Source: a virus. From it: 64,000 nucleotides of DNA. Positions within the stretch are counted from its first letter, which is position 1. Every line of letters starts with the position of its first letter. Positions 16,999 through 64,000 of the stretch are shown here, piece by piece. The position numbers and the translations under genes are program-made. Location of the stretch: IMG/VR virus record IMGVR_UViG_3300040815_002027. One strand, written 5' to 3'. Below the pieces are notes generated by a model that was given only the letters and a program-made list of their open reading frames with translations, made no database searches and was not told where the DNA came from.

Positions 16999-17631
16999 GT
17001 GAGACTAGTTTCCCTACTTCCTATTAGAGAGTCTGTAACTTCCAAGTTTTCTTCTATGATCAAGTCTAATCCAGGGCTTATTACAAAGACTTTACTACCC
17101 ACTTCAGTTCTTATGTTAATACCTTTATTAGCTAATAGTAGGAGTGTTAAGTATTTGGTTCCAGATCATAAAGACACTTTGTTAAGTTTTTGGCGAAGGT
17201 CTATTAAGTATTTAGGAAGTAGTGTAATTTCTATAAAGGAGTATGATATAGACTTGGATAAGTTAACTCCAGAAATTGTTGGCGAGATGTCTGCATCTTC
17301 TGTTGATATTATAACAGCCAGGGTAATCTTAGATTTGCTTTCCAAAGATATTTTAACAAAAGTTAAGGTTAGATCAGATAAGGTAAGAAAAGCTGTGTCG
17401 TATTTGGTAAAGGATATTACCAATTTAAAGGATATTGACGATAGTGCTATAGATGCGTATTTAGAGTCTTTAAGGGATGGGAGTAATACTTTTTCTTATA
17501 ATGGCATTCAGTATAATACCTATTTAGAAGATAGTCCTATTCAGATTGCAAAAGCAGAATTAAGTGATAAGGCAAGTGATCATAAAAAAGTTGGCGAGAT
17601 GGTAGACGAATTAGAAAAACTGTTAAAATGA
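16999..17631 (+). CDS. hypothetical protein
   Basis: ORF track, GTG start downstream of TATTTATA. Confidence 0.7.
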   Translation: MRLVSLLPIRESVTSKFSSMIKSNPGLITKTLLPTSVLMLIPLLANSRSVKYLVPDHKDTLLSFWRRSIKYLGSSVISIKEYDIDLDKLTPEIVGEMSASSVDIITARVILDLLSKDILTKVKVRSDKVRKAVSYLVKDITNLKDIDDSAIDAYLESLRDGSNTFSYNGIQYNTYLEDSPIQIAKAELSDKASDHKKVGEMVDELEKLLK

Positions 17632-18281
17632 TAAAACTAAAAGACATACTTTTAGAGGTTAGTAAGGTGTTTTATCACGGCACTCCAGATTCCAGGCAGA
17701 TATCAAAACAAGCTGGTTTTGAAAGAAAGACAAAAACTATAAACTATATAGAGGATTTGGATAGATACAAAGAATTACAAAGACAGCTTAAGGATACAGA
17801 CTATGCTAATATAGGACAGATAGGTAAAGAGATAAAGTCTTTAGAAAAAAAACATACTTTTAGATCTCCTATATTTTTAACAGATACTCTTTCAGTTGCA
17901 AAGACATATAGTAAGAAGCCTGCCTGGGGTAGTCAGAATAGTACCCCTAAAGTGTATAAGGTAAAGACCAGTCCTTCAAAGATATTAACCTTAGATATAA
18001 AAGGTAAGAGGTTTGATTTTTTAGATGTAGGTTTAGTTGCAGGTGCGTTTAAAAGTGCGGGAGAAGATACTAACACCTTCCATAATTTATTACAAAAGTA
18101 TGAGTACTATCAGTTAGGTAACATAGAAGGAGTACCTACAGACTCTTTAGTGGCTATTGCAGACGAGTTAGGCTTTGACTGTATTGATGTTTTAAATGCA
18201 GAGGATAGTTATAATGTAGGAAACAAATTATCAACAATAAGAATTATGTTGGAACCAAACGATATAAATATTATAAGATGA
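17628..18281 (+). CDS. ART-fold-like protein with MIKLKDILLE leader
   Basis: FYHGT, IFLTD...AKTYS, GFDCI motifs. Confidence 0.65.
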   Translation: MIKLKDILLEVSKVFYHGTPDSRQISKQAGFERKTKTINYIEDLDRYKELQRQLKDTDYANIGQIGKEIKSLEKKHTFRSPIFLTDTLSVAKTYSKKPAWGSQNSTPKVYKVKTSPSKILTLDIKGKRFDFLDVGLVAGAFKSAGEDTNTFHNLLQKYEYYQLGNIEGVPTDSLVAIADELGFDCIDVLNAEDSYNVGNKLSTIRIMLEPNDINIIR

Positions 18282-19297
18282 TTAAATTAAAAAACATTGT
18301 AGAGAGTATCTTAAAAGAAAGAATATCAGATATAGTATACCACGCTACGTATCTTAATAAAGGCCTAAGCATATTAAAACAAGATGCTTTTGTTTTAGCT
18401 ACTGTAACTGGTACTAAATCTGAAAAAGAAAAAAATAAAGGTAAAAACTACTATATGTCTTTAGCAAGATCTATGAGCAGTGGTTATAATCTTTTTAGAA
18501 ATGCTAGACAAATTATATTTTTTAAACTTGATGGAAAATTGTTGGGAAATAACTTAAAAGGAGGTCCTATAGATTATTGGGATGGTATGCATATGATGAA
18601 TATAAGTAATATGACAAATAAAGAAATGGAAGATAGAATATTCTCGGATAAACCTAAAATAGAAAATGCTTCTAAATATATAGAAGAGGTATATATTTTT
18701 TTAGGAGAAAAAAAATTTAAAATGAATAAAGATGAAAAAGGTATACCTACTGGTACATATACATCCTGGTATGAATTGGAAAATATGTTATCAGATAATA
18801 CAAAAAACATTATATTACAAATACTTGTACTACTAAAAAAAAGAGGCATACCTTTTTACATATACTTTAATAAATCAGATTTATTATCAAACAATAAGAA
18901 AAATGCCGTCAATTTTAAACAACTTAATTTAGGAGATAGAAAAGGTAATTTAGAATACAGTTATGACCGCTCAGATGTAAATAAATATAGGTATTTGGAA
19001 AAATCTCAATTATTAATATACTTATATTATTTTAACAATATAAATAAAATTAAAAACATTGTTCCAAAACACTATAAAGATATTGTAAAATCTAAAGTAT
19101 ACGATATAACTAAGTTACATAAAAACGATTTTCTAATGAGTGAGTATATTAGAAGTTTAAAAGGTGAGATCCACAATGAAAAATCTAAAAACAACAACTA
19201 TATTAATAGGCTCAATAAAATAATGAGAGATGAAAAATTAACTAATTTAGAAGACCTTGTTACCTTAATATCAAAAAAATGGGATAAAATATTATGA
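18278..19297 (+). CDS. leader-bearing protein, paralog of 27198 (possible ART fold)
   Basis: ERISDIVYHAT, YYMSLAR, LDG, EDRIF shared with 27198. Confidence 0.7.
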   Translation: MIKLKNIVESILKERISDIVYHATYLNKGLSILKQDAFVLATVTGTKSEKEKNKGKNYYMSLARSMSSGYNLFRNARQIIFFKLDGKLLGNNLKGGPIDYWDGMHMMNISNMTNKEMEDRIFSDKPKIENASKYIEEVYIFLGEKKFKMNKDEKGIPTGTYTSWYELENMLSDNTKNIILQILVLLKKRGIPFYIYFNKSDLLSNNKKNAVNFKQLNLGDRKGNLEYSYDRSDVNKYRYLEKSQLLIYLYYFNNINKIKNIVPKHYKDIVKSKVYDITKLHKNDFLMSEYIRSLKGEIHNEKSKNNNYINRLNKIMRDEKLTNLEDLVTLISKKWDKIL

Positions 19298-19779
19298 TTA
19301 AATTAAAACAAATACTAAACACCTTAACAGAATCATTAGAAAGATTACAATTCTCAAACTGGGAGATTCCTGACTTAAAGCAGCTTAAGCTAGAGTTTAA
19401 GGTAGAGCATCAGCTAAAAAGAAATAACTTTTTTGAAAGTGAAGAAGATTTCTTAGAAAGAGTAGATAAAGGTGAGATAATAACAATAACAGAGCAAGAT
19501 GATAGAAGTATATCTTATAGATCAAGAACAAAGAGCTTTGATCAGCTACATAATCTTATAAGAAGTTACGCTTCTTATCCAGAGTTTAGAAATGAGGATA
19601 CTTTAAAAAATATTTACAAAGGTTTTAGAGAAGGTAAGGCTATGGATTTACCTATTGTAATTGAGTTTAGTAACGGAGCAAGAAGAATATTCTCTGGAAA
19701 TACAAGATTAGATGTAGCCTTTCAGTTAGGGGTTACTCCTGTAAAGGTTCTTCTTATAAAGTCTGACCGAGAATATTAA
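19294..19779 (+). CDS. ParB/Srx-like domain protein with leader
   Basis: LPIVI...IFSGNTRL motif. Confidence 0.55.
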   Translation: MIKLKQILNTLTESLERLQFSNWEIPDLKQLKLEFKVEHQLKRNNFFESEEDFLERVDKGEIITITEQDDRSISYRSRTKSFDQLHNLIRSYASYPEFRNEDTLKNIYKGFREGKAMDLPIVIEFSNGARRIFSGNTRLDVAFQLGVTPVKVLLIKSDREY

Positions 19780-19831
19780 TATCCGCTGCGTATTTTGTGG
19801 CGGAGAAGTATATTTATATTAAAACAACAGT

Positions 19832-20932
19832 ATGAACAAACAACTTATTAAAGAAGAAATCGCCAAAATACAGAGAATTGCAGAGGTAAAACAGCAATTA
19901 GACGGCAAATATGAGTATCCTTCCTATACAAATGAGCAAATTGAGGTCTTAAAGGAGGGTTTTTTAGACAAAATGAAGGCTAAGTTTAAGGATAAGTTTA
20001 CATATGATCCTAACGTAAAAGCTATCTATTCTTATATAAAAGGTGGCGGAAAAGGCAATTTAAGGCTTCAAAACTACCCTTATGGTACATTTCCACCTGA
20101 ATTGAAGAAAGTTGGCGGCAATTTTACTGTATCTTCTTCTAAAATAGAGGAGTTTTCTCCTAAAATGCAGATAGATGGAGATTTAACTGTTATGAAAACA
20201 GATATAAAGAATTTAGGAAAAGACTTAACTATTAAGAATGACCTAGCTATTATAAACTGTACTAACTTAAATGTATTTCCTAATAAGATTTTTGTTGGGG
20301 GAAGTATTGCAATCAAGGACACTCCGATAAAATCTTGGCCCAAAACTATATCAAAGATCAACGGTAATCTAGGATTATATAAAACAGATGTAGCTGAACT
20401 ACCTTCAGGTCTATCTGTAAACGGAGTTCTAGATTTAAGAGACACTCCGATAAAGAAGATTCCAGATAATTTATTTGTAGCAGATAGTTTGTATGTGACT
20501 GGATGTCCTAATCTTAAGGGTGTATTCAGTTTTGGAAAAAATATTAGAGTAGATAAGAATGTTCATTTAAAGAAGACTCCTTTGATGAAGAGCTTAAGTA
20601 CTCAGGATGATGTAAAAAGTTTTGTTGAAGCTACTGGTATGCAAGTAGGTGCGATACACTACGGTAAAAAATATCCTGTTGCTTTTAATGCTGGAAAAAA
20701 ATCAAAGAAGGTAACAGCAGACATTGGAGGTAAGATCAGAGCTAAGCGAACAGCTCAAGGAGGTGGAGGGTTTGGCGGACAACTTGGAGCAGGTGGTAGA
20801 GCTGCTGGTGGAAGTAGAAAGAAGAGTATCTTCAACATCTTCAGAGAAAGTTTAAAAGAGGCTGAATATAGTCCAGAGGAGTTAAAGGAGATCGAAGGTG
20901 CTATTTCTATCTTACAAAAATATGATGCCTAA
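19832..20932 (+). CDS. leucine-rich-repeat-like protein with Gly-rich tail
   Basis: Repeats LPSGLSVNGVLDLRDTPIKKIPDNLFV. Confidence 0.75.
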   Translation: MNKQLIKEEIAKIQRIAEVKQQLDGKYEYPSYTNEQIEVLKEGFLDKMKAKFKDKFTYDPNVKAIYSYIKGGGKGNLRLQNYPYGTFPPELKKVGGNFTVSSSKIEEFSPKMQIDGDLTVMKTDIKNLGKDLTIKNDLAIINCTNLNVFPNKIFVGGSIAIKDTPIKSWPKTISKINGNLGLYKTDVAELPSGLSVNGVLDLRDTPIKKIPDNLFVADSLYVTGCPNLKGVFSFGKNIRVDKNVHLKKTPLMKSLSTQDDVKSFVEATGMQVGAIHYGKKYPVAFNAGKKSKKVTADIGGKIRAKRTAQGGGGFGGQLGAGGRAAGGSRKKSIFNIFRESLKEAEYSPEELKEIEGAISILQKYDA

Positions 20933-21486: not shown

Positions 21487-22088
21487 CAAAGCTATCTGAG
21501 TTAAAAAAAGAAACGCTTTTAAATACTGAAGAGTATTATGAGGTAGCTAAGGCTATAAGAGCTGGCAAACCTATAGACTTTTATTACTCACAAAAAAGTT
21601 CAGTATCTCCTTTATACTGGGCTGGTCCTGGTGCTGGACCTGAAGCTTCAAAAAGAATAACCGTCCAACCCTATGCTTTAGGTATATCTAATAAGTATAC
21701 TGGATCTGGAGTCTTTATGTTGGCAATGATAAGAAAAGGAGAAACCTTTAGTATGTCCAACACAGGAATTTGGAGAACTTATTATTTACATAGAATGGCA
21801 GATATAGAGCAGTCTTCTGAAAGGTGGGTAACGCCTAATAAAAGACCGCCAGATGATAAATTATTTAAAAATATAGGAGATATAACAATGGTACACAGAG
21901 AATTAAACAGCATACCTCAAGATGACACTCTAGATACAGACGTAGACTATGAGATAAGCGAAGCTGAAGAAGCGGATATTAAAAACCTACAAAAAGATGT
22001 AGAGGAGTTTAGTAAGAATAAGGAGAAGATAAAGACAAAGTTATCTGATATTGCCAAACAACTTTTAGGAGATAAAGACAAGAAATGA
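21483..22088 (+). CDS. WYL-domain-like protein (paralog)
   Basis: IDFYY, RITVQPYALG, WRTYYLHRM. Confidence 0.6.
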   Translation: MTKLSELKKETLLNTEEYYEVAKAIRAGKPIDFYYSQKSSVSPLYWAGPGAGPEASKRITVQPYALGISNKYTGSGVFMLAMIRKGETFSMSNTGIWRTYYLHRMADIEQSSERWVTPNKRPPDDKLFKNIGDITMVHRELNSIPQDDTLDTDVDYEISEAEEADIKNLQKDVEEFSKNKEKIKTKLSDIAKQLLGDKDKK

Positions 22089-22651
22089 TAAAGATATTAC
22101 TTTTTACATTTGCCCCCATCTTTTTGATGGCACAAGATAACTCTCTATTTTATAGTTTTGGCTTTTATATGAACGATGTAAGAGACTTAGATGGGAGAAC
22201 TCCTATATCTTTAGAGATAGGTGCTGATATGGACACTTACACTGCGTCTTTGCAATCAGATGTAAGAAGAGGAAAGACTTACATAGGGAATTATGTTTCT
22301 AACTCTGATCCTGTTAGTATAGACACCAGGTATGTAATTAATGGTAAGATAAATAAGAATCATTTATTAGGAGGGTATGGGCAGTTTACAACAACTGCAA
22401 TGGCCATAGATGGAGCTGCCATAGGATTATCTTATAGGTATATAAATAAGCCTACAAAAGTTTTTTCTTTTTTTGCCGACTTTTTTTTGCCTGTATTAGG
22501 CTATAACAAAATAAGAAAGTGGAACCCTGTTGACGAGCGTGTAAATAGTATTATCTTTGGACATAACCTTAATCCTGCCTACAAAGCCAGGAACACAGAA
22601 ATTAGGTTTAAAGTAGGATTAGTAATTAGAAACTTTATAAATGAAAGATAA
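22085..22651 (+). CDS. putative exported outer-membrane beta-barrel-like protein
   Basis: Signal peptide ending MA|Q; alternating beta pattern; paralog of 25039. Confidence 0.55.
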   Translation: MIKILLFTFAPIFLMAQDNSLFYSFGFYMNDVRDLDGRTPISLEIGADMDTYTASLQSDVRRGKTYIGNYVSNSDPVSIDTRYVINGKINKNHLLGGYGQFTTTAMAIDGAAIGLSYRYINKPTKVFSFFADFFLPVLGYNKIRKWNPVDERVNSIIFGHNLNPAYKARNTEIRFKVGLVIRNFINER

Positions 22652-23982: not shown

Positions 23983-24597
23983 ATGAAAAAACACATATTA
24001 CAATTTTTTAAATTTTTAAAAGATAAGGAAGGTAAATCAGCTCCCTTAAAACTCAAGCTCTTAGACCCACAAACTTTTGGTAAACCCACAAAAAATCAGT
24101 TAAATGTAAAAGGTGACTTAAATTTAAGTAAGACAAATATAAAGGAACTACCTCAAGGACTACAGGTGAGTGGGGATTTAGATTTAAGCGGTTGCACATC
24201 TCTTACAAAACTTCTACAAGGACTACAGGTGGGTGGGAGTTTAGATTTACAAGGCTGTACTTCTCTAAAAGAACTACCTCAAGACCTTAAGGTGGGTGAC
24301 GGTATAAATTTAATGGATTGCACATCTCTTAAAGAATTACCACAAGACCTTTATGTGGGTGAAGATTTAGATTTAGAAGGTTGCACATCGCTTAAAGAAC
24401 TCCCACAAGGACTACAGGTGGGTTGGAGTTTAAATTTAATGGATTGCACATCTTTAAAAGAACTTCCACAAGGTCTTAAGGTGATTGATAATTTATGGTT
24501 AGTAAACACACCTATAGCAGATAAATACTCAAAAGAAGAGATAAAAAAGATGATAGAAGATGGGGGAGGATTTGTTGAAGGTGAAATTAATGTATAA
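23983..24597 (+). CDS. LRR protein with 6 repeats of about 21 aa
   Basis: xVxxxLxLxxCTSLKELPQxL repeats. Confidence 0.9.
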   Translation: MKKHILQFFKFLKDKEGKSAPLKLKLLDPQTFGKPTKNQLNVKGDLNLSKTNIKELPQGLQVSGDLDLSGCTSLTKLLQGLQVGGSLDLQGCTSLKELPQDLKVGDGINLMDCTSLKELPQDLYVGEDLDLEGCTSLKELPQGLQVGWSLNLMDCTSLKELPQGLKVIDNLWLVNTPIADKYSKEEIKKMIEDGGGFVEGEINV

Positions 24598-25022
24598 TGA
24601 AAAAACACATAGCACAATTCTTTAAATTTTTAGAGGATAAGGAAGGTAAGCCTGCTCCGTTAAGACTCAAGCTCTTAGATCCTCAAACATGGGGTAAACC
24701 TACGAAGGAAGATTTAAACGTTAAAGGTGATTTAGATTTATCAGAAACAAACATAAAAGAGCTTCCACAAGGACTTAAGGTAGATAAGAATTTATGGCTA
24801 GATGGTTGTACATCGCTTGAAAAACTACCCCAAGGTCTTAAGGTGGGGTGGCTTTTAGATTTAACAGATTGCACCTCCCTTGAAAAACTACCCCAAGGAC
24901 TTGAGGTGGGTATGGGTTTAAATTTAACAAACACACCCATAGCACAAAAATACTCAAAAGAAGAAATACGAAAAATGATCGAGCGTGGAGGTAAATCTGT
25001 TAAAGGTCAAATTATTATATAA
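24597..25022 (+). CDS. LRR protein with 3 repeats of about 21 aa (tandem paralog)
   Basis: Same N- and C-caps as 23983. Confidence 0.9.
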   Translation: MKKHIAQFFKFLEDKEGKPAPLRLKLLDPQTWGKPTKEDLNVKGDLDLSETNIKELPQGLKVDKNLWLDGCTSLEKLPQGLKVGWLLDLTDCTSLEKLPQGLEVGMGLNLTNTPIAQKYSKEEIRKMIERGGKSVKGQIII

Positions 25023-25038
25023 TGGAAAAACACAAATT

Positions 25039-25671
25039 ATGAAACAGATTATAACAACATTCCTACTACTATTAGGAATCACAACCTATTCTCAAACAGG
25101 GTGCTATACTTTTCCTTCAAGTACAAGATCATCGGTAGGTGTTTTAAAACTTGGAGCAGGTATTATGCCATTTATGATGCAAGACAATGACCAGCTTCCT
25201 ATTAGAATGTTTATGATGGAGATGGAGTATAAAACTTGGGGAGGAGGAGTTCAACTTGATGCGAGATCAGGTAAGACATATCTATCAAAAACATTTCCCT
25301 ATGCTCCTTCCATATCTATGGATTCAAGACTCTACGGCTATCATAATATGAATGATAATGTATCTATAGGAGGATACGGACAGATTAACTCTACAAGTAT
25401 GTGGGTGGATGGATGTGCTTTGGGAGGACTCCTACGATACTCACAAGACTTTAAGAACGTTGGTATGTTTGGACAAGTACAACTACCTTTCTTTAGTATG
25501 CAAAGAAGACCTCCCTCAACGGTAGCAAATGGGATGGAGCATCAAAAACTATATTGGTTTGGTATTCCTGAAAATTTTGGGCAAGATGACTTTCACAAAA
25601 CAAGACCATCAGAATATAGATTTACAGTTGGAGTATATATAAGAATAAACAGTAGAATATATCCATATTAA
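25039..25671 (+). CDS. putative exported outer-membrane beta-barrel-like protein
   Basis: MKQIITTFLLLLGITTYS|Q signal; shares RxGKTY, GGYGQ, DGxAxG, ExRFxVG with 22085. Confidence 0.55.
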   Translation: MKQIITTFLLLLGITTYSQTGCYTFPSSTRSSVGVLKLGAGIMPFMMQDNDQLPIRMFMMEMEYKTWGGGVQLDARSGKTYLSKTFPYAPSISMDSRLYGYHNMNDNVSIGGYGQINSTSMWVDGCALGGLLRYSQDFKNVGMFGQVQLPFFSMQRRPPSTVANGMEHQKLYWFGIPENFGQDDFHKTRPSEYRFTVGVYIRINSRIYPY

Positions 25672-25684: not shown

Positions 25685-26185
25685 ATGATTAAACTAAAGG
25701 AAATATATAATACATATATCATTTCAGAATTTACAAAATCTGATTATATAGAAATACCTTATGGTAAAGATGATGGTATAGATTATGATACTTTAGAGGA
25801 TGAAGGGTTAGAAGATTATGAAGATGATATACTTGACCAAATAGATACCTTAGAAAAAGAGTCTGGAATACATTTTACAAGAGATAGGTTTATAGATACA
25901 ATATTATTTCATAAAAAAGATAATAAGGTAGTTGGAGTGTTATACTATTCTGATGATACTGATAAATTTACCTTTGATGTAATAGTCTCTAAAGATTATA
26001 GAAATAAAGGAATAGCTTCTTATTTAGTTAAATTGGCTTTAGATTTTTATAACTTTGATACAGAAATGTTTAATAATAAAATAGAAGTAGATGCAGTTAA
26101 TCCGATTATGGCTAATTTACTAAAAACTAAATTTAATTTTAAAGTAAAAGAAAAACTACCTGGTAGAGAAATACTCACACGATAA
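25685..26185 (+). CDS. GNAT acetyltransferase with leader
   Basis: VIVSKDYRNKGIASYLV acetyl-CoA-binding motif. Confidence 0.8.
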   Translation: MIKLKEIYNTYIISEFTKSDYIEIPYGKDDGIDYDTLEDEGLEDYEDDILDQIDTLEKESGIHFTRDRFIDTILFHKKDNKVVGVLYYSDDTDKFTFDVIVSKDYRNKGIASYLVKLALDFYNFDTEMFNNKIEVDAVNPIMANLLKTKFNFKVKEKLPGREILTR

Positions 26186-26196: not shown

Positions 26197-26775
26197 ATGA
26201 TTAAACTAAAGCCACTTGTAGAAGGTATTTTAAAAGAAAGATATGATATTTCCAAATACGACAATATGTTAAAACAAAAATATGATATAGATTATTCAGA
26301 CTTAAATTATTTAGGAAGTGGAGACTTTGGTGAAGCATATTCTGATGATGAAGGGAAGGTCTTTAAGTTTACAAGTTCTAAAAGCGAGGCATCATTAGCA
26401 AAAGAAATATTGAAAAGTAACTCAAAGTATGATGCCTTTGCAGATATCTACGATGTAGTAGATTTAGATAATAGAGTGACACTCATAGTACAAGAAGAAT
26501 TAGAAGAAGACAGTTCTATAGAAGATATGTACTATCAAGTAGAAAATATATTAGCTAATCAAGAACTTCCTATACAGTATATACATAATTTAGATTATGA
26601 TGAATTAGACGAAGAAATTGATTCAGAGTTAGAAAAATTTATTAACGATTTAGAAGATATAGTTAGGTCGTATAGAATGTTAGGTATAGAAGCCTCTGAT
26701 ATACGCCCAGAAAATATGGGATATGATAAATCAGGTAAACTAAAAGCATTTGATATAGATGATAAAAATAAGTAA
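26197..26775 (+). CDS. minimal Ser/Thr protein kinase-like protein with leader
   Basis: LGSGDFGEAY Gly loop, VFK, DIRPENMG catalytic loop, FDID. Confidence 0.8.
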   Translation: MIKLKPLVEGILKERYDISKYDNMLKQKYDIDYSDLNYLGSGDFGEAYSDDEGKVFKFTSSKSEASLAKEILKSNSKYDAFADIYDVVDLDNRVTLIVQEELEEDSSIEDMYYQVENILANQELPIQYIHNLDYDELDEEIDSELEKFINDLEDIVRSYRMLGIEASDIRPENMGYDKSGKLKAFDIDDKNK

Positions 26776-26776: not shown

Positions 26777-27205
26777 ATGATTAAACTAAGACAACTATTA
26801 AAAGAAGCCAAGAAGAAACTCTATCCTTGTCCTAAACCAACAAAGGATTTAAAACTTAATACAAAGAATAGAAACAAGGCTATTAAAGCAGACCACATTA
26901 AGTATGGTCCTTTAAACGTAGATAAGCCAGGAAACTTTTGGAAACAAATAGCAAAGTTTTGGAACACAGAAGAAGATGCAGCAAAGTCTTCTTTATGCGG
27001 TAACTGTGCTGCATTTGATGTATCTCCAAGAATGAAGCAGTGTATGCCTGGAGAACTACAAGATGATGATGGAGAGTTAGGATATTGTTGGATGCACCAC
27101 TTTAAGTGCCACTCTGCAAGGACTTGTAGAACTTGGGCGAAGGGTGGACCTATAAAAACAGATGATGTATCTGAAACTTGGCAAAATCAAAAATCAGATG
27201 ACTAA
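26777..27205 (+). CDS. Cys/His-rich metal-binding protein with leader
   Basis: MIKLRQLLKE; CGNC, GYCWMHHFKCHSARTCRTW. Confidence 0.75.
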   Translation: MIKLRQLLKEAKKKLYPCPKPTKDLKLNTKNRNKAIKADHIKYGPLNVDKPGNFWKQIAKFWNTEEDAAKSSLCGNCAAFDVSPRMKQCMPGELQDDDGELGYCWMHHFKCHSARTCRTWAKGGPIKTDDVSETWQNQKSDD

Positions 27206-28220
27206 ATTAAAGATATTATTAGAACAAGTATTAAAAGAGCGTATAACTGATAAAGTGTATCATATAACTACTATAGAAAATGCTCTAAATATCTTACAAT
27301 CAGATTCTTTTAAAGCATCTAAAGTGTATGCTAAAGACAAAGAAAAGGAGATAAACCCAGAAGGTTATGATTATTATATGTCTACTGCCAGGGTAAGAAA
27401 TAGTATTTATATTAAAGATCACGCATCCTCATTCTCTGAAGTTATGTTTGTATTAGATGGTAATAAGTTAAATCAGAATTTCAAAGGAAGAGCTGTGAAT
27501 TATCACGCAGGTAGTTCACATTCGCCTACAAGAAGGTATTCAGAAGATGAAGATAGAGTGTTTTTGAAAAAACCCTTTATAAAAAACTTCTCAAAATATA
27601 TAAAAAGAGTAGATATATTTATTAAAGAATCTACAAATAGTAATAATATTAATTGGATAGCGGCTAGAAAAATTATTTTAAAATGTAAAAAATATAATAT
27701 AGACTATTTAATATTTAATAAAAGGGGAGATTTTATAAAAGGAGACAAAAAATTATCTATCCCTTTTGAAGATGTTAAAGGCTATATGAAAGGAGACTTA
27801 CCAAAACGTAGACCTTTTCTAGATACTTTAGATAGAAAAGAGAAACAGTATGTAACATCTTTTATATTTCTATACCATTCTAAGTCTTTATATGATTTCT
27901 ATGTTAAAAATAAAACAAAAGGCTATCCTTATATTTTTCCTAATAATAATTTAAAACCAGAAGAGTTAAAAAAATGGATAAGCAATCCTAAGAATAAGGC
28001 TGATTTATTATCATCTCTAGTACGTGTACTAGACGAGTTTGGTGATATAACAAGCTATTCATTCTTTTTTAGTATACGTGATAAAGATAATACACACAAA
28101 AGAATAAGTGATGCTATAGAAAAAATATTTAGAACAGAAAGAGTAAGAAGTTTAGATGATAAGTTAGAGTCTAAAATAATAAACAAGTGGAAAGATATAT
28201 TAGATAATTATATAGAATAA
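27198..28220 (+). CDS. leader-bearing protein, paralog of 18278
   Basis: MTKLKILLEQVLKE start; VYHIT, YYMSTAR, EDEDRVF. Confidence 0.75.
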   Translation: MTKLKILLEQVLKERITDKVYHITTIENALNILQSDSFKASKVYAKDKEKEINPEGYDYYMSTARVRNSIYIKDHASSFSEVMFVLDGNKLNQNFKGRAVNYHAGSSHSPTRRYSEDEDRVFLKKPFIKNFSKYIKRVDIFIKESTNSNNINWIAARKIILKCKKYNIDYLIFNKRGDFIKGDKKLSIPFEDVKGYMKGDLPKRRPFLDTLDRKEKQYVTSFIFLYHSKSLYDFYVKNKTKGYPYIFPNNNLKPEELKKWISNPKNKADLLSSLVRVLDEFGDITSYSFFFSIRDKDNTHKRISDAIEKIFRTERVRSLDDKLESKIINKWKDILDNYIE

Positions 28221-28221: not shown

Positions 28222-29319
28222 ATGACTAAATTAAAGATATTATTAGAACAAGTTTTAAAAGAGCGTATAACTGATGAAGTCTATCACCTGACTACCACAC
28301 GAAGAGCTTTGTCTATTTTAGAGTCAGATACTTTTAAAGCATCTACTGTATTTGGAACATATTTAGATACGAAACAATTAATTAGAGAAATATTAAAGGA
28401 GAAAACAATTAATAATTTGGGATTAATGACCCAAATATTATATCATGGCACAAAGTATGAATTTGATAAATTTGATTTAAATTTTTTTAATAGTGGTTCT
28501 GGAGATGGTGGATGGCTAGGTTATGGTATTTATTTAACTAATGATTATGAATATGCTGAATCATATGGTAATGTTTTGGAGTGTAAGATTAATATTAAAA
28601 CCCCATATATTATTTCAGAATTTAGTTATAGTAGAAGTCCAGAAAAATTAGCCAATGAATTAGGTGTTAAAAATGCTAGAGAAATTACAAAAAAATTAAT
28701 AAAAGAGGGCTATGATTCAGTTGTTTTAACCTATCCAGATAAAGGTTACACTAAAGACGATGAATATAGTGAATTTATAGAGATATGCGTTTTTAATCCA
28801 AATGATATTCAAATAATGAATAATTTAAATGAACAACAAATATCCTTACATAAAAGTGAGTTGTTTGCCTTAGAAGATGATATACTAAAAAACATTCCAG
28901 ATGGTTACTTATATCATGGTTCAAATAACATATCTTACTTTAATGATACGTCTGATATAGATACATCAAACAATACGGTTAATGCTAAAAGTAAATATTT
29001 ATTTTTAACACCAAACAAGTTAACAGCATTCAATTATTCTACAATAAATAATGGTATGAATGTTAAAATAAGTGATAAAAGTGGTGTTTTATCGTTTGCT
29101 TTAAAAAAAGCTAAAGGTAAGAAATTAACATCAAACGAACTAAAATATAGTAATATGGTTGAGTTTGAAGAGATATTAGATTATTACAAAAACAAAGGCT
29201 ATGATTATGTGATAATAGTACCAGATGGTAGAAACTATGCTATACTAAATCCTAGTATATTAAAAATAGTAAGTAAAACATATACATATGATATTATTAA
29301 TAATCAAACTATAAATTAA
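28222..29319 (+). CDS. chimeric protein: leader plus two ART-like domains
   Basis: LYHGT..GYGIYLT..YAESYG..GYDSV and LYHGS..LFLT..AFNYS..GYDYV. Confidence 0.7.
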   Translation: MTKLKILLEQVLKERITDEVYHLTTTRRALSILESDTFKASTVFGTYLDTKQLIREILKEKTINNLGLMTQILYHGTKYEFDKFDLNFFNSGSGDGGWLGYGIYLTNDYEYAESYGNVLECKINIKTPYIISEFSYSRSPEKLANELGVKNAREITKKLIKEGYDSVVLTYPDKGYTKDDEYSEFIEICVFNPNDIQIMNNLNEQQISLHKSELFALEDDILKNIPDGYLYHGSNNISYFNDTSDIDTSNNTVNAKSKYLFLTPNKLTAFNYSTINNGMNVKISDKSGVLSFALKKAKGKKLTSNELKYSNMVEFEEILDYYKNKGYDYVIIVPDGRNYAILNPSILKIVSKTYTYDIINNQTIN

Positions 29320-29411: not shown

Positions 29412-29834
29412 ATGAAAACTCACAAACTAAAAGTAACTCTTAACGAGATAAAAAGAATGCAAGAATTGGCAGGAATACAGACTTTAAAAGAGTCGATGTC
29501 TAATAACCAAAATATAGAAGTTATTGTAAATTTTAAAAAATCACAATTAGAATTTTATGACCCAGAAGAACACGATTTAATTGGGTCTTTTGAGTTTGAA
29601 CCTCTTGCGAATGGGACTATTGATACTGACAAAACAGGTATCTTAGATTTATTTAAAAATGATTATAGTTTTAATATCTTAATAAAAGGTATAGATTATG
29701 AAGGTAAAGAACTAAGAAATTTAGAAATGGACGATGTTATAAGGAATCCTAAAGACCTTATGGATACATTAAACGATGCTGTTCTTGATTACGATAGTAT
29801 GATGAATCTTGATGCTATGGGAAAACTTGGTTAA
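29412..29834 (+). CDS. hypothetical late protein with EIKRMQELAGI motif
   Basis: ORF track; downstream of TATTTATA. Confidence 0.75.
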   Translation: MKTHKLKVTLNEIKRMQELAGIQTLKESMSNNQNIEVIVNFKKSQLEFYDPEEHDLIGSFEFEPLANGTIDTDKTGILDLFKNDYSFNILIKGIDYEGKELRNLEMDDVIRNPKDLMDTLNDAVLDYDSMMNLDAMGKLG

Positions 29835-29878: not shown

Positions 29879-30469
29879 ATGAAATTACACAGTTTATTTT
29901 TTATTTTAATGTTATCTCTTTTTAGTTGTTCAACTGAGGGAGATGTAGACACAACAGAACAGGAAGGAAAAGATACAGTAATTGTAGATGTTCCTACAGG
30001 AGATGTGGTTGATGCTCCTGTTGTTTCCGCTCCTATAAAAAAGAAGAAGCCAGTTTTAAAACAAGAAGACTTGCCTAAATCTCCAGATGGTAGTGTTGTA
30101 GAAATGTCTACAGAAGAAGTAGAGGAGTCAGTAGTAACTCCTCCTATCTTTTTTGACTGTGAGCTTAAAAAAAGAGAAAGATCTCAGATGAGATGCTCAG
30201 AAAAGTATTTACAGTCTTATGTAGAAGAGCATATTGAGTTTGAAGCAGAACAAGGAGTAGAACATTATGCTTCTGTTAAGTTTAGTATTAGAGCTAACGG
30301 ATCAACAGGAACCGTAACTATTTTAGGCACTAGTGACGATCAGTTCGGTGCAGCTGTTGTAAAAGTTATAAAAAAACTCAATGTAGATGGTCTTATGTGG
30401 ACTCCAGCTTATAAAGACGGAGAAGCTATTAATTATGACTATTATACTGAGTTTGAGATAAAGTATTAA
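29879..30469 (+). CDS. lipoprotein with TonB C-terminal-like domain
   Basis: LFS|C lipobox, Pro/acidic linker, VKFSIRANG...WTPAYKDGEAI. Confidence 0.7.
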   Translation: MKLHSLFFILMLSLFSCSTEGDVDTTEQEGKDTVIVDVPTGDVVDAPVVSAPIKKKKPVLKQEDLPKSPDGSVVEMSTEEVEESVVTPPIFFDCELKKRERSQMRCSEKYLQSYVEEHIEFEAEQGVEHYASVKFSIRANGSTGTVTILGTSDDQFGAAVVKVIKKLNVDGLMWTPAYKDGEAINYDYYTEFEIKY

Positions 30470-33863: not shown

Positions 33864-33885
33864 TATTTATAGATAAACCATTTGA

Positions 33886-35751: not shown

Positions 35752-36645
35752 ATGTATTACAGATTTGGATCAAAAGGAGATAAAGTAAGAGAAATACAAA
35801 TAGCTTTAAAACTACACGTTGACGGTATTTACGGTAGAATGACAGAAGCTGCGGTAAAAAACTTTCAGATAAAAAATGGAATGCATCCTGATGGAGTAGC
35901 TTCTCCAGATGTACTGAACTTACTACTAGGAGATAACTATACTACCGACACTCTAGAAAGTTTCTATAAGGAAGGTAATTTTATAAGAAGATGGTTAAGG
36001 GAAGGGGAGTATACAGAAGAACCTGTAAAGAAAGAATACATATTCTTACACCATACAGCAGGCAGCTACCACCCTTTTTACACAATTGATGGTTGGGAGA
36101 GAGATAAAAGAGGAAGAGTGGCTACTGAGTTTGTTATTGGAGGCAGGTCCTTTTTAGGTACAAATGACTATGACGGTCTTATAGTACAAGCATTTCCAGA
36201 TGATTGCTGGGCATATCATTTAGGAGTTCCTAACCAGTACTTAGAAAAATACTCGGTAGGTATAGAGATATGTAATTTTGGTAAATTAACCGAAAAAGAA
36301 GGTAAATATTTTAACTATTTAGGGCAGGAAGTACCAGAAGATCAAGTTTGTGTACTAAAAGAAGAATATAGAGGGAGTAAATACTATCATAACTACACAG
36401 AAAAGCAGATAGTAGCACTTGAGAGACTTATTAAGTTCTTAGCAGATAAACACTCAATAGACCTAGAAAAAGGTCTAAAAACATGGCTAAAAACGTTTTC
36501 TCCTACTATTGCCTTTGATTTTTACTCAGATGCTATACAAGGTAAGGTAAAAGGACTTTTATCGCATACAAATGTCAGAAAAGGTCACGAGAAGCAAGAC
36601 ATATATCCACATCCAGGAATACTAGATATGCTTAATAGATTATGA
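35752..36645 (+). CDS. endolysin: peptidoglycan-binding domain plus Amidase_2
   Basis: DGIYGRMTEAAVKNFQ; LHHTAG, AYHLG, SVGIEICN, SH...KQD. Confidence 0.9.
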   Translation: MYYRFGSKGDKVREIQIALKLHVDGIYGRMTEAAVKNFQIKNGMHPDGVASPDVLNLLLGDNYTTDTLESFYKEGNFIRRWLREGEYTEEPVKKEYIFLHHTAGSYHPFYTIDGWERDKRGRVATEFVIGGRSFLGTNDYDGLIVQAFPDDCWAYHLGVPNQYLEKYSVGIEICNFGKLTEKEGKYFNYLGQEVPEDQVCVLKEEYRGSKYYHNYTEKQIVALERLIKFLADKHSIDLEKGLKTWLKTFSPTIAFDFYSDAIQGKVKGLLSHTNVRKGHEKQDIYPHPGILDMLNRL

Positions 36646-37065
36646 TATACCTTTAACTAAATGATCTTCTATATACTTTATAATCATTTTTATATCTTTT
36701 ATAGAATAAAACTCTCCTATAATTTCACCATCAGCATATAGCAGGTAGGTTTTCTTATTATTTCTAATTAAACCTTCTGCAATTCTTAAATCTACACCAT
36801 TTACATTCTTTTGGGCGATAGGGTTGTCATAGTTAAACGCCTTCTGTCTAATATCGTCTTTTCTTCTCCCAAAAAAATTAGAGACATCTCCATCAACATA
36901 GTTTGCTTCTATTTCCTTTTGAAGCTCTTCGGCTTCTTTTTTATCTAAAAACTTCCCCTTTACCGTATTGTCTAAAGCTGGTAATGCTATATTTTTTAAT
37001 TGTTCAACTTTATTTTCTGTTAGAAGAATTTTTATGTTGGTAGGAAGTAGTTCTTTTAGTTTCAT
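36640..37065 (-). CDS. hypothetical protein with MKLKELL leader
   Basis: ORF track. Confidence 0.75.
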   Translation of the reverse strand: MKLKELLPTNIKILLTENKVEQLKNIALPALDNTVKGKFLDKKEAEELQKEIEANYVDGDVSNFFGRRKDDIRQKAFNYDNPIAQKNVNGVDLRIAEGLIRNNKKTYLLYADGEIIGEFYSIKDIKMIIKYIEDHLVKGIS

Positions 37066-37094: not shown

Positions 37095-37517
37095 TTACTC
37101 AGATTTTATACTAATTTGTTTTGGTTGCTGACTTTCTTTATAAGGTATAGTAATACTTAAAATACCTTTGGATAGTTTAGCTTCTAGTTTTTCTAAATCA
37201 TATCTTCCAGATAGCTTATACCCTAAATCGAAAGAACGTTGTACAATAGACCTTACAATATAATTAACATCTTCGCCAATTTTTGGCTTATCGTATTTTA
37301 TACGTAAGGTATCTGCTGTTACTGTAATGGTAATATCCTCTAACTCTGCTCCTACACAAGCTAGTTGTAGTTGCAACCCCTCATCAGATTGGATTAAGTC
37401 AATAGGATAATTAATGTTGTTTTCTTTTACTGATAGATAATCAGCTTTTTGGTCGAAAAAATTCTTCAAGAAAACATCAACAGAAGAAAAAGGTACGGAA
37501 TTTACTTTTCTAATCAT
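37095..37517 (-). CDS. small heat-shock protein (Hsp20/alpha-crystallin)
   Basis: YPIDL, LACVG, RSIVQRSF, AKLSKGILSITIP. Confidence 0.9.
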   Translation of the reverse strand: MIRKVNSVPFSSVDVFLKNFFDQKADYLSVKENNINYPIDLIQSDEGLQLQLACVGAELEDITITVTADTLRIKYDKPKIGEDVNYIVRSIVQRSFDLGYKLSGRYDLEKLEAKLSKGILSITIPYKESQQPKQISIKSE

Positions 37518-48067: not shown

Positions 48068-49701
48068 CAGAATTAGAAAAAATACAAGGAGATTGTACTG
48101 ATGGTTGTGATGAGACTCTTGTAGTCGGAGCTGCTCCAGAAAATTCGGAGAGAAGATATTCTCCTGGATTCTTAGATAGTGGTAGATTGGGTTTGGGTTC
48201 TGGAGGTCCTGCTCCTATAGATTATGAAGCTTTAGGTATACCTAGACCTACTACTAATCCTAGAGGCCTTATAACTGGTTTTGCTAAATATGTTGTTTTT
48301 AAGGAGAAGGTAGGAAATGTATATAAAGAGTATGTAGTAGATATTAAGAAAAGAGAGGACGTAAAAAATGAAACTTCTGGAGAAAATTTAACAAAAGAGC
48401 AATTAGATGCTATAAACATAAAATTTTTATCTCAAAATAATTTAGGCAAAAAAATAGTGCCTATAACTTATAGTAGTTTAAATGGGGAACTGGTTGTTAA
48501 TCCTGCTTTTTTGGGCATAGTTCCTGAGAAGAGGGTTATAGCAGATTCTGAATTATGCTCTCAAATAGATTGTGAGTTTTCGTTCTTTACTGGAGATGAT
48601 GCAGTTGAGCCAGAAGTTATCTATCCGCCAGGTACATTCTTTAGAGTTGCTTTAGACACTTTAGAAGGAGGTCTTTCTCTTCCTAAGTGTGACCAAACTA
48701 TCTACTTTGTAACTCAAGGAAACTGTGTTTGTGAGATACCTAATAAGAAGACTTTACAGGTTATGCTTGTAGAGAGAAATAAAGTAATAGAGAGTGTCTT
48801 TGTTATAGAATCTTTCCAGTTTGATAACTTTGATGTTACTGGACAGTGTCCTAATAGGGCCTCCGAATGGTTAGAAAGATTTGAAATCGAGTCTGGATGT
48901 AAGACTCCTGAAGTAGATATTGATCTAAGTCCGTTTGATAATATTAAGTTCCCAGAATTACCTAGCGTAATTCAAGGTCCTATGGGTATGGCAGGAACTC
49001 CAGGATTCCCAGGAATGCCAGGTGTACCAGGTGTACCAGGAAATAATGGAGAAGCAGGGTCAGATGGTGAGCCAGGAGAGTCTGGAAGCCCAGGAACTCC
49101 AGGACAGCCAGGAAGTGCAGGTGCGCCAGGAGAATGTCCTGATTGTCCATCTCCTTCACCTGCTCCAGAAGAGCCTACTGCTGGTGATGGGTCTTGTAAG
49201 AAGTATAGATTTGTTTACTTAGGAAACCCAGGCGGAGGTTCTGGAGGAGGAGGTTCTGATGTATCCGCTGGAGATGTAAGAAATAATGGAGAGGACTTCC
49301 AAAGCTATTTAGGTGGCGGAGGAGGAGGCCAAGGTTCTGGAATAGGTGATTTTGGTGGAGGAGGATTTGGAGGTGGTGTAGATAGTGGTTTAGGAGGTTT
49401 TGGAGAGTTTGATAACCCTAATTATCAAAGTGGCTTAACCGATGCTGGAGGTACTTTTAATCCAGAAACCATAATGGGGTCTGATACAGGTAATGTTACT
49501 TTAGGTCTAATAGATGCACTAACTGGATTTAGATCAGGGTTGTCTTATTTTGGTGTAGGAGGAGGCGAGAATCAATCTGATGTTCCTTTAGAAGGTGGTT
49601 TAGAAGATGTACAAGATTTTTTGGATAGACTAGCTAATCAGAGCCAAGTTGAAGACAAAAGCGAGAATTCGAATGTTAATATACTAGACCAATTAAAGTA
49701 A
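48064..49701 (+). CDS. putative fiber-associated protein with collagen-like and Gly-rich segments
   Basis: About 18 consecutive G-X-Y triplets (GPMGMAGTPGFPG...). Confidence 0.75.
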   Translation: MTELEKIQGDCTDGCDETLVVGAAPENSERRYSPGFLDSGRLGLGSGGPAPIDYEALGIPRPTTNPRGLITGFAKYVVFKEKVGNVYKEYVVDIKKREDVKNETSGENLTKEQLDAINIKFLSQNNLGKKIVPITYSSLNGELVVNPAFLGIVPEKRVIADSELCSQIDCEFSFFTGDDAVEPEVIYPPGTFFRVALDTLEGGLSLPKCDQTIYFVTQGNCVCEIPNKKTLQVMLVERNKVIESVFVIESFQFDNFDVTGQCPNRASEWLERFEIESGCKTPEVDIDLSPFDNIKFPELPSVIQGPMGMAGTPGFPGMPGVPGVPGNNGEAGSDGEPGESGSPGTPGQPGSAGAPGECPDCPSPSPAPEEPTAGDGSCKKYRFVYLGNPGGGSGGGGSDVSAGDVRNNGEDFQSYLGGGGGGQGSGIGDFGGGGFGGGVDSGLGGFGEFDNPNYQSGLTDAGGTFNPETIMGSDTGNVTLGLIDALTGFRSGLSYFGVGGGENQSDVPLEGGLEDVQDFLDRLANQSQVEDKSENSNVNILDQLK

Positions 49702-59984: not shown

Positions 59985-59988
59985 TGAT

Positions 59989-61659: not shown

Positions 61660-61671
61660 AAGTGAATAAAG

Positions 61672-62244
61672 ATGATAAAACTAAAAGAACTACTAGAAAG
61701 ACTCCAGACTGAACAAGATATAGAGGGATTTAAAACCCCAGAAAAATATGCCACATCAGGACAGTATTTTGAAAATGGTGATGAACCAAGCATATTAGGG
61801 AAAAGAGTATGGATACATACTAATAGAAGGCACAGAAATGATAAAGTTAATGGTATAATAGGTATATATAAAAGTACAGACAAAGGGTCTAAAATACCTA
61901 CTGTAATCGGATACACTAATCAAATAAGACTTGTTGGGGATATTTTTTTTGATGTTAGTCAATCAGGAGTAGATAGAATAAAAAAAACAGATAAAAGAAC
62001 ATTAGTAGCAGGTATATCAGGTATTGTAGGAAAGGTTAACAAAGGTTCAACATCAGGAATGGAAAAAATAACTTTTAATCCAAAATCTAAGCATATTAAA
62101 GGATTTCATAAAGTAGGAGGAGATGTAGAGGGAGGTGGTGAATTATTGTCAGCGGATGAAGTTTATATGGAGGCGGACTCATATACAAGTGATGGTGGTG
62201 AGGTTAGATGGAACGTTTATGCAAAAGGTCTTAAGTACAAATAG
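61672..62244 (+). CDS. hypothetical protein with MIKLKELLE leader
   Basis: ORF track. Confidence 0.8.
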   Translation: MIKLKELLERLQTEQDIEGFKTPEKYATSGQYFENGDEPSILGKRVWIHTNRRHRNDKVNGIIGIYKSTDKGSKIPTVIGYTNQIRLVGDIFFDVSQSGVDRIKKTDKRTLVAGISGIVGKVNKGSTSGMEKITFNPKSKHIKGFHKVGGDVEGGGELLSADEVYMEADSYTSDGGEVRWNVYAKGLKYK

Positions 62245-63207
62245 TATGATAAAACTTAAAGAAATTTTGCAAGAGGCTAAAAGAGATGCTTCTTTAGTAA
62301 AGAACTTTAAGGAATTTGTGAATGAATCAATTTACTATCATGGGACAACATTACCTAAATCAAACCCAAAAATTGACTCTTTTAAAACTAAAACTGGATT
62401 TAGAAGTAATTCAATGACAGGTTTAAAACGTTTGGTTAATTCTCCTTGGATATTTTTTACTGATGATTATCATTTAGCACAAAAATTTGGCTCGGCTAAA
62501 ACAGCTGGTTTATATCACGATAAAGGTGATTTTTCACATAAAACAGTTGTTTTAGAGTATGATATTGACGAATCTAAATTAAATATATTAGATTTAACAA
62601 TGGGTGATTTTATTGAAAAAATTGAAAAAATTGTAGATAGCGACATACTAAATAATTATTATGGTAGTATGGTTGCTTTTTATGACATTGAAATTGAAGA
62701 TACTTGGGAGTTGTTAGATGATAATATCATAAGTAATATTATAATTAAAAAAGGGTTTGATTCAGTTAAGTTAATTGAAAGTGGTGGTAAATCATTAGCC
62801 ATACATATAAGCAAAGTTAATACGGTAGTCAAACAAAGACAATAGTGTGTAGTAAAATTATTTTTGTTTTTCATCACGAAACTCAATTATAAGTACCAAT
62901 ATAGCACTTGTACATAACGGTTGAGAATATAAGTAGTATCCGATTTGAAACAAGAAACTTAAAGTTTAATATAAATGTTAAACAGAAGTAGTAGCTTAAA
63001 TGAAACACATAACTCGGTTATTACTTATATTCTTTGTTATGTACAGGTGCGGTGGGTTTAAGACAAAACTTAATTAGAACCACAGACAAAAAACAAAAAT
63101 AATTGAGATATACATATAAACTTATTAACTTGTAGTATGATAAAACTTAAAGAAATTTTGCAAGAGGCTAAAAGAGATGCTTCTTTAGTAAAGAACTTTA
63201 AGGAATT
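62242..63207 (+). mobile_element. cassette-like insertion bounded by a perfect 75-bp direct repeat (62242-62316 = 63133-63207) and containing a complete attC-like hairpin (62904-63050)
   Basis: GCACTTGTACATAAC / GTTATGTACAGGTGC outer arms; AGAATATAAGTA / TACTTATATTCT inner arms. Confidence 0.75.
62246..62845 (+). CDS. ART-like protein fused to the duplicated leader of the downstream HD gene
   Basis: YYHGT, IFFTDD..LAQKFG, GFDSV; true ATG 62246. Confidence 0.75.
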   Translation: MIKLKEILQEAKRDASLVKNFKEFVNESIYYHGTTLPKSNPKIDSFKTKTGFRSNSMTGLKRLVNSPWIFFTDDYHLAQKFGSAKTAGLYHDKGDFSHKTVVLEYDIDESKLNILDLTMGDFIEKIEKIVDSDILNNYYGSMVAFYDIEIEDTWELLDDNIISNIIIKKGFDSVKLIESGGKSLAIHISKVNTVVKQRQ

Positions 63208-63667
63208 ACTTCTTATGTTCCCCAAGGAAGTTAGAGATAAGGTTATGCGTTTAAAATGTGTTCCTCAAAATCCTAAGTGGCATCCAGAAGGAAATACTTT
63301 AAAACATACAATATTAGTTGTAAGGAGAGCTATAGAGCATTCAAATAAGGATGCAGATATGATTATAGCAGCACTATTTCATGATGTAGGTAAGTATGAT
63401 ACTTTAGGTACGAATCCAAAAACAGGACAACCGACTGCTTTTGGACACGAAAAAGTTTCAGCCGAGGAAGTAGAAAAATATAAAGATGCTATAGAGTCTC
63501 TTGGAGGAAATGTGAGTAGAATAAAAGCTATAGTAAAAGACCATATGAGAATAAAAAAATATGGGGAGATGAGACAAAAAAAGAAAGAACAAATGGAAGC
63601 TATGGAGATTTTTGATGACTTGAAATTCTTTTGTAACAAACTAGATAAAGGAGGAATAGACATATGA
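63137..63667 (+). CDS. HD-domain protein (type seen in CCA-adding enzymes) with leader
   Basis: QNPKWHPEGNTLKHT, ALFHDVGK, GHE, HM. Confidence 0.85.
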   Translation: MIKLKEILQEAKRDASLVKNFKELLLMFPKEVRDKVMRLKCVPQNPKWHPEGNTLKHTILVVRRAIEHSNKDADMIIAALFHDVGKYDTLGTNPKTGQPTAFGHEKVSAEEVEKYKDAIESLGGNVSRIKAIVKDHMRIKKYGEMRQKKKEQMEAMEIFDDLKFFCNKLDKGGIDI

Positions 63668-64000
63668 TGAAATTAACTACACTTTTGAAAGAATCAAGAA
63701 CTTACACAGGAGACTATGTTGCACAACATATAAAAGATATAACGCCTGATGAAGATATGATTCCTGATTATTTTATTAGCAAATATATAAAACCTAACGA
63801 TGGTTGGGAGAGGAAATCTATAAGAATAAAAGATTTATTGAAAACTGATGAATCCTTTAAAGAGTATTTTGACTCAGGAGAAGATAGATATTACGGTTAT
63901 GATATGGATGAAGATGATTTAAATTTAGAATTAGTAGTTTATAACGGGAATTTATTAGATGGTTACAGTAGAGCGACCAAACTTTTAAATAATGATTTTA
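63664..64000 (+). CDS. leader-bearing ParB-like protein (partial, runs off window)
   Basis: MMKLTTLLKE...ELVVYNGELLDGYSRA, manually translated. Confidence 0.6.
   Translation, partial: MMKLTTLLKESRTYTGDYVAQHIKDITPDEDMIPDYFISKYIKPNDGWERKSIRIKDLLKTDESFKEYFDSGEDRYYGYDMDEDDLNLELVVYNGNLLDGYSRATKLLNNDF

Follow-up and report, generated by a model that had tools for sequence, protein, structure and literature searches.

A short N-terminal leader on unrelated proteins of a large phage: a candidate T4-type capsid-targeting propeptide

We analysed a 64-kb stretch of viral DNA (30% GC; IMG/VR record IMGVR_UViG_3300040815_002027), hereafter the window, which is a portion of a large myophage. Thirteen protein starts in it have in common a tag of 10-17 residues with the consensus M-I-K-L-K-x-[LI]-[LI]-x-E (x, any residue). 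In some proteins it is extended to a second h-x-E (h, hydrophobic) at residue 13-17, and in three position 8 is Val or Tyr. The tag is genuine and occurs far more often than chance would allow. We put at roughly 70% the probability that it serves as a T4-type capsid-targeting propeptide, removed by a protease; the 13 tagged proteins would then probably be carried in the virus particle. A first-pass annotation of the same letters had suggested as much, and all 13 strong N-termini that it named (17628, 18278, 19294, 25685, 26197, 26777, 27198, 28222, 37065 on the - strand, 61672, 62246, 63137 and 63664) are present:

17628..18281, + strand: 217-aa protein, leader MIKLKDILLE; body family unknown, no Pfam or PHROG match
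18278..19297, + strand: 339-aa protein, leader MIKLKNIVESILKE; ADP-ribosyltransferase (ART) fold, DarT/Tpt1-like, by AlphaFold2 (AF2) model and Foldseek
19294..19779, + strand: 161-aa ParB/sulfiredoxin-like protein, leader MIKLKQILNTLTE; Atlas feature score 0.94-0.95 to ParB_N clusters
25685..26185, + strand: 166-aa GNAT acetyltransferase, leader MIKLKEIYNTYIISE; Pfam Acetyltransf_1, E 1.3e-7
26197..26775, + strand: 192-aa protein-kinase-like protein, leader MIKLKPLVEGILKE; PHROG 'kinase', E 7e-4 (weak); Atlas template-modelling (TM) score 0.60 to T7-kinase/Pkinase clusters
26777..27205, + strand: 142-aa protein, leader MIKLRQLLKE; no Pfam or PHROG match for the body
27198..28220, + strand: 340-aa paralogue of 18278, leader MTKLKILLEQVLKE; blastp of bodies, E 2e-18 to 18278
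28222..29319, + strand: 365-aa ART-PolyVal protein, leader MTKLKILLEQVLKE; Pfam ART-PolyVal, E 2.8e-14
36640..37065, - strand: 141-aa protein, leader variant MKLKELLPTNIKILLTE; body unknown; adjoins the HSP20 gene; identical copy in locus L001
61672..62244, + strand: 190-aa Phage_L5_gp82-like protein, leader MIKLKELLE; Pfam PF25735, E 1.5e-6
62246..62845, + strand: 199-aa protein, leader MIKLKEILQE; first 23 codons identical to the HD gene's
63137..63667, + strand: 176-aa HD-domain phosphohydrolase, leader MIKLKEILQE; Pfam HD, E 1.2e-7
63664..63999, + strand: protein truncated by the window end, leader MMKLTTLLKE; M[ITM]KL[KRT] match

The pattern M[ITM]KL[KRT] matches the six-frame translation of the window 12 times. 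All 12 matches are starts of + strand genes, and in all 12 two hydrophobic residues follow directly; the thirteenth leader is the variant on the - strand (36640..37065). In 100 dinucleotide-preserving shuffles the same pattern was found 0.43 times on average and 3 times at most, and its extended form 0.06 times. The leader had been described as absent from the early island and from the baseplate genes, and indeed neither the early island (1-16 kb) nor the baseplate/structural block (38.7-61.6 kb) has an M[ITM]KL[KRT] match.

Once the first 20 residues are removed, only the proteins 18278, 27198 and 28222 (named here by gene start) are similar to one another by blastp. About ten independent body groups result: ART-fold, ART-PolyVal, GNAT, HD, kinase-like, ParB-like, L5 gp82-like and unknowns. 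The earlier phrase "otherwise unrelated proteins" thus stands for some ten bodies and not for 13, as 18278, 27198 and 28222 are paralogues and 62246 and 63137 have their leader in common through a 75-bp duplication. The tagged proteins are 141-365 aa long with at most one recognisable domain each; among them PHROGs name 26197 alone, and weakly. PDB sequence searches with 19294, 26197 and 18278 gave chance-level matches only, and an IMG/VR single-protein scan with the 28222 protein found no relatives.

Structure prediction places the leader apart from the enzyme. In the AF2 model of 18278 (22 homologues; mean predicted local distance difference test score, pLDDT, of 76) it forms a detached helix of residues 2-13, and the domain runs from residue 19. 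Foldseek matches this protein best to Tpt1/KptA, DarT and pierisin, which all have the ART fold (E ~0.01, probability 0.9-1.0). Atlas structural alignments of 19294 and 26197 begin past the leader, at residues 8-15 and 9-16, respectively. Homologues of 18278 in other phages have unrelated N-terminal extensions: MIINEVILSE, MNFKEYYLLRE, MRARELFE, MFNE and a long one ending in VLNE. Nearly all extensions in the family alignment end in h-x-E, with the conserved ISDIVYHxT core starting one or two residues later.

At the DNA level, the 50 nt upstream of the tagged genes are unrelated and similarity begins exactly at the ATG, while conserved leader residues are encoded by varying synonymous codons (ATA/ATT, CTA/TTA/CTT, AAA/AAG). 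Therefore, it is the peptide that is under selection.

The same tag recurs in relatives of the phage, which itself fits a large uncultured Bacteroidota phage. Near-identity DNA searches of the sequenced-phage collection gave no close match to the window. Its gp6-like baseplate wedge protein (45044-46933) shows 52% identity to its counterpart in Microcystis phage Mel-JY01 (190 kb; PP395634.1) and 40% identity to wedge proteins of Flavobacterium immuto phages, and it led us to ~600 relatives in IMG/VR. Two relatives with ~50% identical wedge proteins have genes starting with MIKLK, including a homologue of 19294 (in relative G002). In Mel-JY01, three ART-like ORFs (60276, 60923 and 62056) start with MIKLKSLLQE, MIKLKSLLKE and MIKLMSLVTE. 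Phage immuto (NC_055915) has the leader MENFDLKKFLVEN[KR]LT on four proteins (1803, 103806, 117631 and 118632), MKKQILSEQF[KR]RMQxLAGIITE on two (25061 and 111675) and MIKLIDLLTE on one (24569). Around the baseplate wedge gene of 80 relatives, out to 10 kb, there were almost no tagged genes, a result explained by the layout of the window, whose tagged arrays are more than 10 kb away from that gene.

We then scanned IMG/VR with a back-translated DNA pattern for MIKLKxhhxE, with Leu or Phe (TTY) allowed at position 4 and position 6 unconstrained. The scan returned at least 154 matches at at least 119 loci. Among the matches listed, 146 begin ORFs of at least 60 aa, and at least 138 start such ORFs with no in-frame ATG upstream. 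As 30-nt sequences these 138 leaders take 128 distinct forms; Leu stands at position 4 in 130 leaders and Phe in 8, and Asp is favoured at position 6. By blastp, 135 listed tagged ORFs fall into at least ~80 families. Pfam recognises Mom, NUDIX, RNase_T, AAA_33/zeta-toxin kinase, ADPrib_exo_Tox, OmpA, SprT-like and cell-wall hydrolase domains among them, and most have no family. Once the leaders are cut off, 106 of the 119 listed loci have at least one protein in common (E < 1e-10) with the window, with Mel-JY01 or with immuto; the tag is thus close to a marker of one clade, and not a general trait of A/T-rich phages. In several IMG/VR proteins the residues E-N-M-R-R-F-G-T-K-N-L come directly after the MIKLK leader and may form a second conserved module.

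These counts bear on the best surviving alternative, in which the conserved start is a feature of the nucleotides with no role as protein: either an A/T-rich initiation region, as in the Shine-Dalgarno-less translation of Bacteroidota, or a microhomology or junction for cassette recombination. The leader DNA is A/T-rich (ATGATTAAACTAAAA), and at one place a leader was plainly copied as DNA. An exact direct repeat of 75 bp (62242-62316 and 63133-63207) spans the ATG and 23 codons of both 62246 and 63137. The repeats bracket an 891-bp insert made of a gene body and nested inverted repeats (62856/63089, 62904/63036 and 62924/63011), the hairpins lying in the 290-nt spacer. This arrangement has the look of a recent insertion of the cassette type, by which the 5' end of the target gene was duplicated; a resident leader was thereby grafted onto another body. 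Such grafting shows how new cargo would gain the tag, and alone does not explain why the tag is conserved. A nucleotide-level feature is nevertheless improbable. The amino acids are constant while synonymous codons are free to vary, as the 128 versions indicate, and Leu prevails over Phe at position 4 in A/T-rich genomes, under a pattern that admitted TTY. Neither Glu10 nor the hydrophobic pair is needed for initiation. In the window most tagged genes overlap or directly adjoin the genes beside them, which leaves no space for junction hairpins, and the tag is nearly confined to one phage clade. Finally, orthologues swap whole 10-mers and yet keep h-h-x-E.

The last point comes from a syntenic Lys/Glu-rich protein of ~380 aa found between the protease and scaffold genes of the head module. 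It starts with MIKLK[NTS]ILLE|K in several relatives, with MIRLKNILLE in one and with MYEYVEYILE|K in Mel-JY01 (at 22429; the bar marks the putative cut). Here the 10-mer changes as a whole, its h-h-x-E being kept.

Such exchangeable decamers have a known counterpart. In phage T4, the first 10 residues of internal protein (IP) III suffice to bring it into the head (Mullaney & Black 1996, as reviewed in PMC9026906), and the prohead protease gp21 cleaves after L/I-x-E (PMC9026906). Residues 4 and 7 of this capsid-targeting sequence (CTS) serve in targeting, residues 8 and 10 in processing (PMC9026906). T-even internal proteins are diverse except for the conserved CTS (PMC3012670), which may be a general route for T4-like phages to load diverse proteins (PMC9026906). 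The leader described here is similar in shape: about 10 N-terminal residues ending in h-h-x-E on otherwise unrelated proteins, with L4, L/I7, L/I8 and E10 conserved at just the T4 targeting and processing positions. In the T4 genome (NC_000866), gp24 starts with MAKINELLRE|S, IPII and IPIII with MKTYQEFIAE|A, gp21 with MNEPQLLIE and Alt with MELITE; the known maturation site of gp23 reads FLTE|AEIGG. The window leader is nearly superimposable on the gp24 propeptide, MIKLKxLLxE being nearer to MAKINELLRE than to the IP tag. The MYEYVEYILE of the Mel-JY01 head module has the same Tyr4, Glu6, Ile8 and Glu10 as the start of IPII and IPIII.

The clade also has the head machinery to match, with homologues of gp20, gp21 (S77), gp22 and gp23. 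A gp21-like protease, which the first-pass annotation proposed to look for, is encoded by Mel-JY01 (Peptidase_S77, gp21 family, E 6e-30), together with a portal protein of the gp20 type (Portal_T4) and a Gp23-family capsid protein, and a protease gene of this kind is seen at 29 leader-bearing IMG/VR loci. The FLTE|A of T4 gp23 aligns with a conserved QLI[SDEK]E|[AS] in five capsid proteins of the clade, from Mel-JY01 and four IMG/VR relatives. Scaffold proteins are low-complexity coiled coils; those of the clade start like gp22 and are rich in [LI]xE (34-50 per 1000 residues). To our knowledge, the binding partner of the CTS in T4 is not structurally defined.

Tagged genes are found among these head genes. 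Head-module genes are present at 42 of the 119 listed loci. At the 29 listed loci with a protease, the tagged genes, 38 in number, all share its strand, and 33 are downstream of it. Where scaffold or capsid genes are also seen, 17 of 17 tagged genes occupy the variable slot between protease and scaffold/capsid. One of the IMG/VR relatives (L225, 14331-14969) has there, between prohead protease and scaffold/capsid genes, an Fe/Mn superoxide dismutase with the leader MKLKTILKEILE. In the head module of Mel-JY01 we also noted a gene for ribosomal protein S21 (22183-22410).

In the window itself the arrays of tagged genes apparently belong to the same transcription units as structural genes. The motif TATTTATA occurs there in 14 copies on the + strand, of which 12 are followed by an ORF start 15-60 nt on. 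Structural units have it in front at 33864, 38696, 44143 (the gene before gp25) and 55228; further copies lie at 19811 and 29386, and one stands ahead of a tagged array:

16946..16953, + strand: promoter-like TATTTATA motif before the tagged array 16999/17628-19779

No terminator-like sites were found on the + strand between 16946 and 30122. Directly after the structural genes that begin at 55255 comes the third tagged array (61672 onward). A different element, cTATATTTGcagaacattaat (a(a/c)ctatatttgcagaacattaat), is conserved in ten copies ~35-40 nt before ten small genes, and only in 6893-13480 of the window. TAnnTTTG is the -7 element of housekeeping promoters in Bacteroidota; the block fits a Bacteroidota host and would mark 6.9-13.5 kb as early genes, read by the host polymerase. 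An upstream motif 'ATAWAAAC' was not specific and was dropped for TATTTATA, and a sigma-70 promoter scan of the window stayed at shuffle level and was uninformative.

We can now propose a route for the tagged proteins. They would be made together with the virion genes. The short amphipathic leader would bind the scaffolding core of the assembling prohead, so that the proteins become enclosed, and the prohead protease of the gp21 family (Peptidase_S77) would cut after the Glu of [LIV]-x-E and leave the mature enzyme free in the head. At infection the cargo would exit with the DNA. The first-pass proposal of a capsid-targeting leader is partly supported: the T4 propeptide shape, the head genes of relatives, the LIxE site of the capsid proteins, the head-module location and the apparent transcription units in common with structural genes all fit it; core binding, packaging, cleavage and injection are what we infer from them.

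A second explanation keeps the protease and drops the capsid: the leader would be an inhibitory or stabilising pro-sequence, or a degron, whose removal times the activity of potentially toxic enzymes in the infected cell. Many of the cargo domains could be toxic (ART, kinase, zeta-like, nuclease), and the leader does end in a protease-type site. However, a 10-residue helix that is detached from the domain in the AF2 model is unlikely to inhibit so many folds, the T4 precedent ties cleavage to the prohead interior (PMC9026906), and the protease and scaffold genes have tagged genes between them. We hold this explanation to be even less probable than a nucleotide-level one. The least probable of the three is that the leader targets another site, directing proteins as a signal peptide to the membrane or periplasm, to the tail or baseplate, or to a different compartment of the cell: tagged arrays do flank the baseplate block of the window and the neighbouring untagged genes 22085, 24985 and 29879 carry classical signal- or lipoprotein-like starts, but the leader has only 3-4 hydrophobic residues, broken by Lys, Asp and Glu (MIKLKDILLE), and so lacks the h-region of at least 7 uninterrupted hydrophobic residues of Sec and lipoprotein signal peptides; an N-terminal tail-targeting tag has no known precedent; and in relatives the tagged genes cluster in head modules, with almost none near the wedge gene.

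All three are less likely than a capsid-targeting propeptide, against which several observations nonetheless weigh. The position of the leader Glu in the window varies (residue 9, 10, 13, 14, 15 or 17), and [LIV]-x-E is a short motif, common by chance. The confidence of the 18278 leader helix is low (pLDDT ~55-73), and in four 18278 homologues the N-terminal extension ends in VLAG, without Glu. Calling TATTTATA a late promoter relies on motif association, its lateness being deduced. The scan of relatives, which found the leader mostly in one clade and often in the head module, also found some tagged genes next to recA, helicase or primase instead of head genes, and the three tagged ART-like ORFs of Mel-JY01 adjoin a helicase gene; late expression is therefore neither general nor proven. 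The head machinery is seen in relatives only, since the protease, scaffold and capsid genes of this genome lie outside the window: an upstream walk by exact-protein look-up ended at a contig starting 287 nt before the window and did not reach the protease and capsid genes. A literature search found no virion proteomics or N-terminal study of Mel-JY01 or immuto phages.

The looser variants that were first listed beside the strong ones fared less well. Those at 16999 (GTG start) and 21483 are doubtful. Those at 2431, 23150, 29412 and 30689 do have [LIV]-x-E within 18 residues, as has 15865, which was not on that list; by a rough estimate about a quarter of proteins would have it by chance. Two of them we keep as loose candidates:

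2431..3135, + strand: ART-PolyVal protein, MKDLRKFLSTTAKQYLNE; Pfam E 1.8e-18 from residue 42; weak leader match; TATTTATA 22 nt upstream
29412..29834, + strand: MKTHKLKVTLNEIKRMQELAGIQTLKE; RMQxLAGI motif in common with two immuto proteins

The RMQELAGI motif of the immuto leader is thus found in window gene 29412 as well.

Compared with T4, the hosts here would be Bacteroidota, in keeping with the TAnnTTTG promoter class present, and the scale is larger: 13 tagged proteins in a 64-kb window and ~80 families among the IMG/VR matches listed, versus three IPs in T4. The cargo consists mostly of enzyme-sized domains, whereas the IPs are small and basic, and the system here is predicted from sequence. 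T4 Alt, a packaged and injected ADP-ribosyltransferase, is a close analogue: it too is an ART-fold enzyme that begins with a short propeptide, putative in the window, with x-E at its end, and genes of the Alt family likewise lie beside baseplate genes (PMC5512222). The ARTs of the window are, however, ART-PolyVal and DarT/Tpt1-like by fold, and no Alt-family match was seen among them. The polyvalent proteins of Iyer et al. (2017, PMC5512222) have a similar domain repertoire (ART-PolyVal, ParB-like, GNAT, kinases, nucleases) and were likewise proposed to be delivered with the DNA. There, 2-15 conflict-related domains are fused per polypeptide (PMC5512222), while here separate small proteins each carry their own putative address tag. 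In giant phages of the phiKZ-like/SPN3US type (PMC9026906, PMC5694885), a diverged gp21 homologue removes propeptides from many head proteins, cutting after Glu; their cut motif is S/A-x-E, no single common 10-residue leader has been described in them, and the lineage is unrelated.

The kind of mechanism has been known since the work on the T4 CTS; what is new here is its apparently much enlarged set in distant relatives. A literature search on 'MIKLK' found no phage paper describing this leader. Going further, we lean slightly towards the view that MIKLKxLLxE is a single portable address loading at least 100 protein families (ARTs, kinases, GNAT, HD, NUDIX, Mom, exonucleases, superoxide dismutase) into capsids across a very large uncultured clade of Bacteroidota phages with T4-like heads. 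If so, the set of injected proteins could be read from sequence, and new cargo would be recruited by grafting of the tag, of which the exact 75-bp duplication at 62242/63133 is an instance. Should the tag work as in T4, one could list by sequence the proteins that these abundant aquatic phages bring into their hosts, and would obtain a catalogue of candidate take-over and counter-defence proteins, many of them without family and several likely host-modifying (ADP-ribosyltransferases, T7-kinase-like, acetyltransferase). The host-modifying or anti-defence role given to the cargo from the beginning is read from domain names, and the number of enzymes was then inflated by the paralogues and the recent duplication. 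T4 head loading, known from three small coliphage proteins, would prove to be a general strategy, greatly enlarged in distant relatives, and the leader a short natural tag for loading capsids of Bacteroidota phages.

Some further features were noted in passing. The recorded host of Mel-JY01 (PP395634.1) is Microcystis, while by wedge protein its nearest kin are Flavobacterium phages and the Bacteroidota-type phage studied here. The HSP20 small heat-shock protein next to the tagged gene 36640..37065 is encoded at 37095-37517 on the - strand. 35752-36645 encodes a PG_binding_1 + Amidase_2 protein that we read as a likely endolysin. A GH16 glycoside hydrolase is found at 32358-33062, and the baseplate block includes a collagen-repeat protein (48064-49701). 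The tandem paralogues 23983-25022 and 19832-20932 have near-identical starts (MKKHILQFFKFLKDKEGK and MKKHIAQFFKFLEDKEGK) with weak LRR_EndoS Pfam matches and no leader. The untagged genes with signal- or lipoprotein-like hydrophobic starts (22085-22651, 24985-25671 and 29879-30469) share a block with tagged ones, and the last of them has a TonB_C domain.

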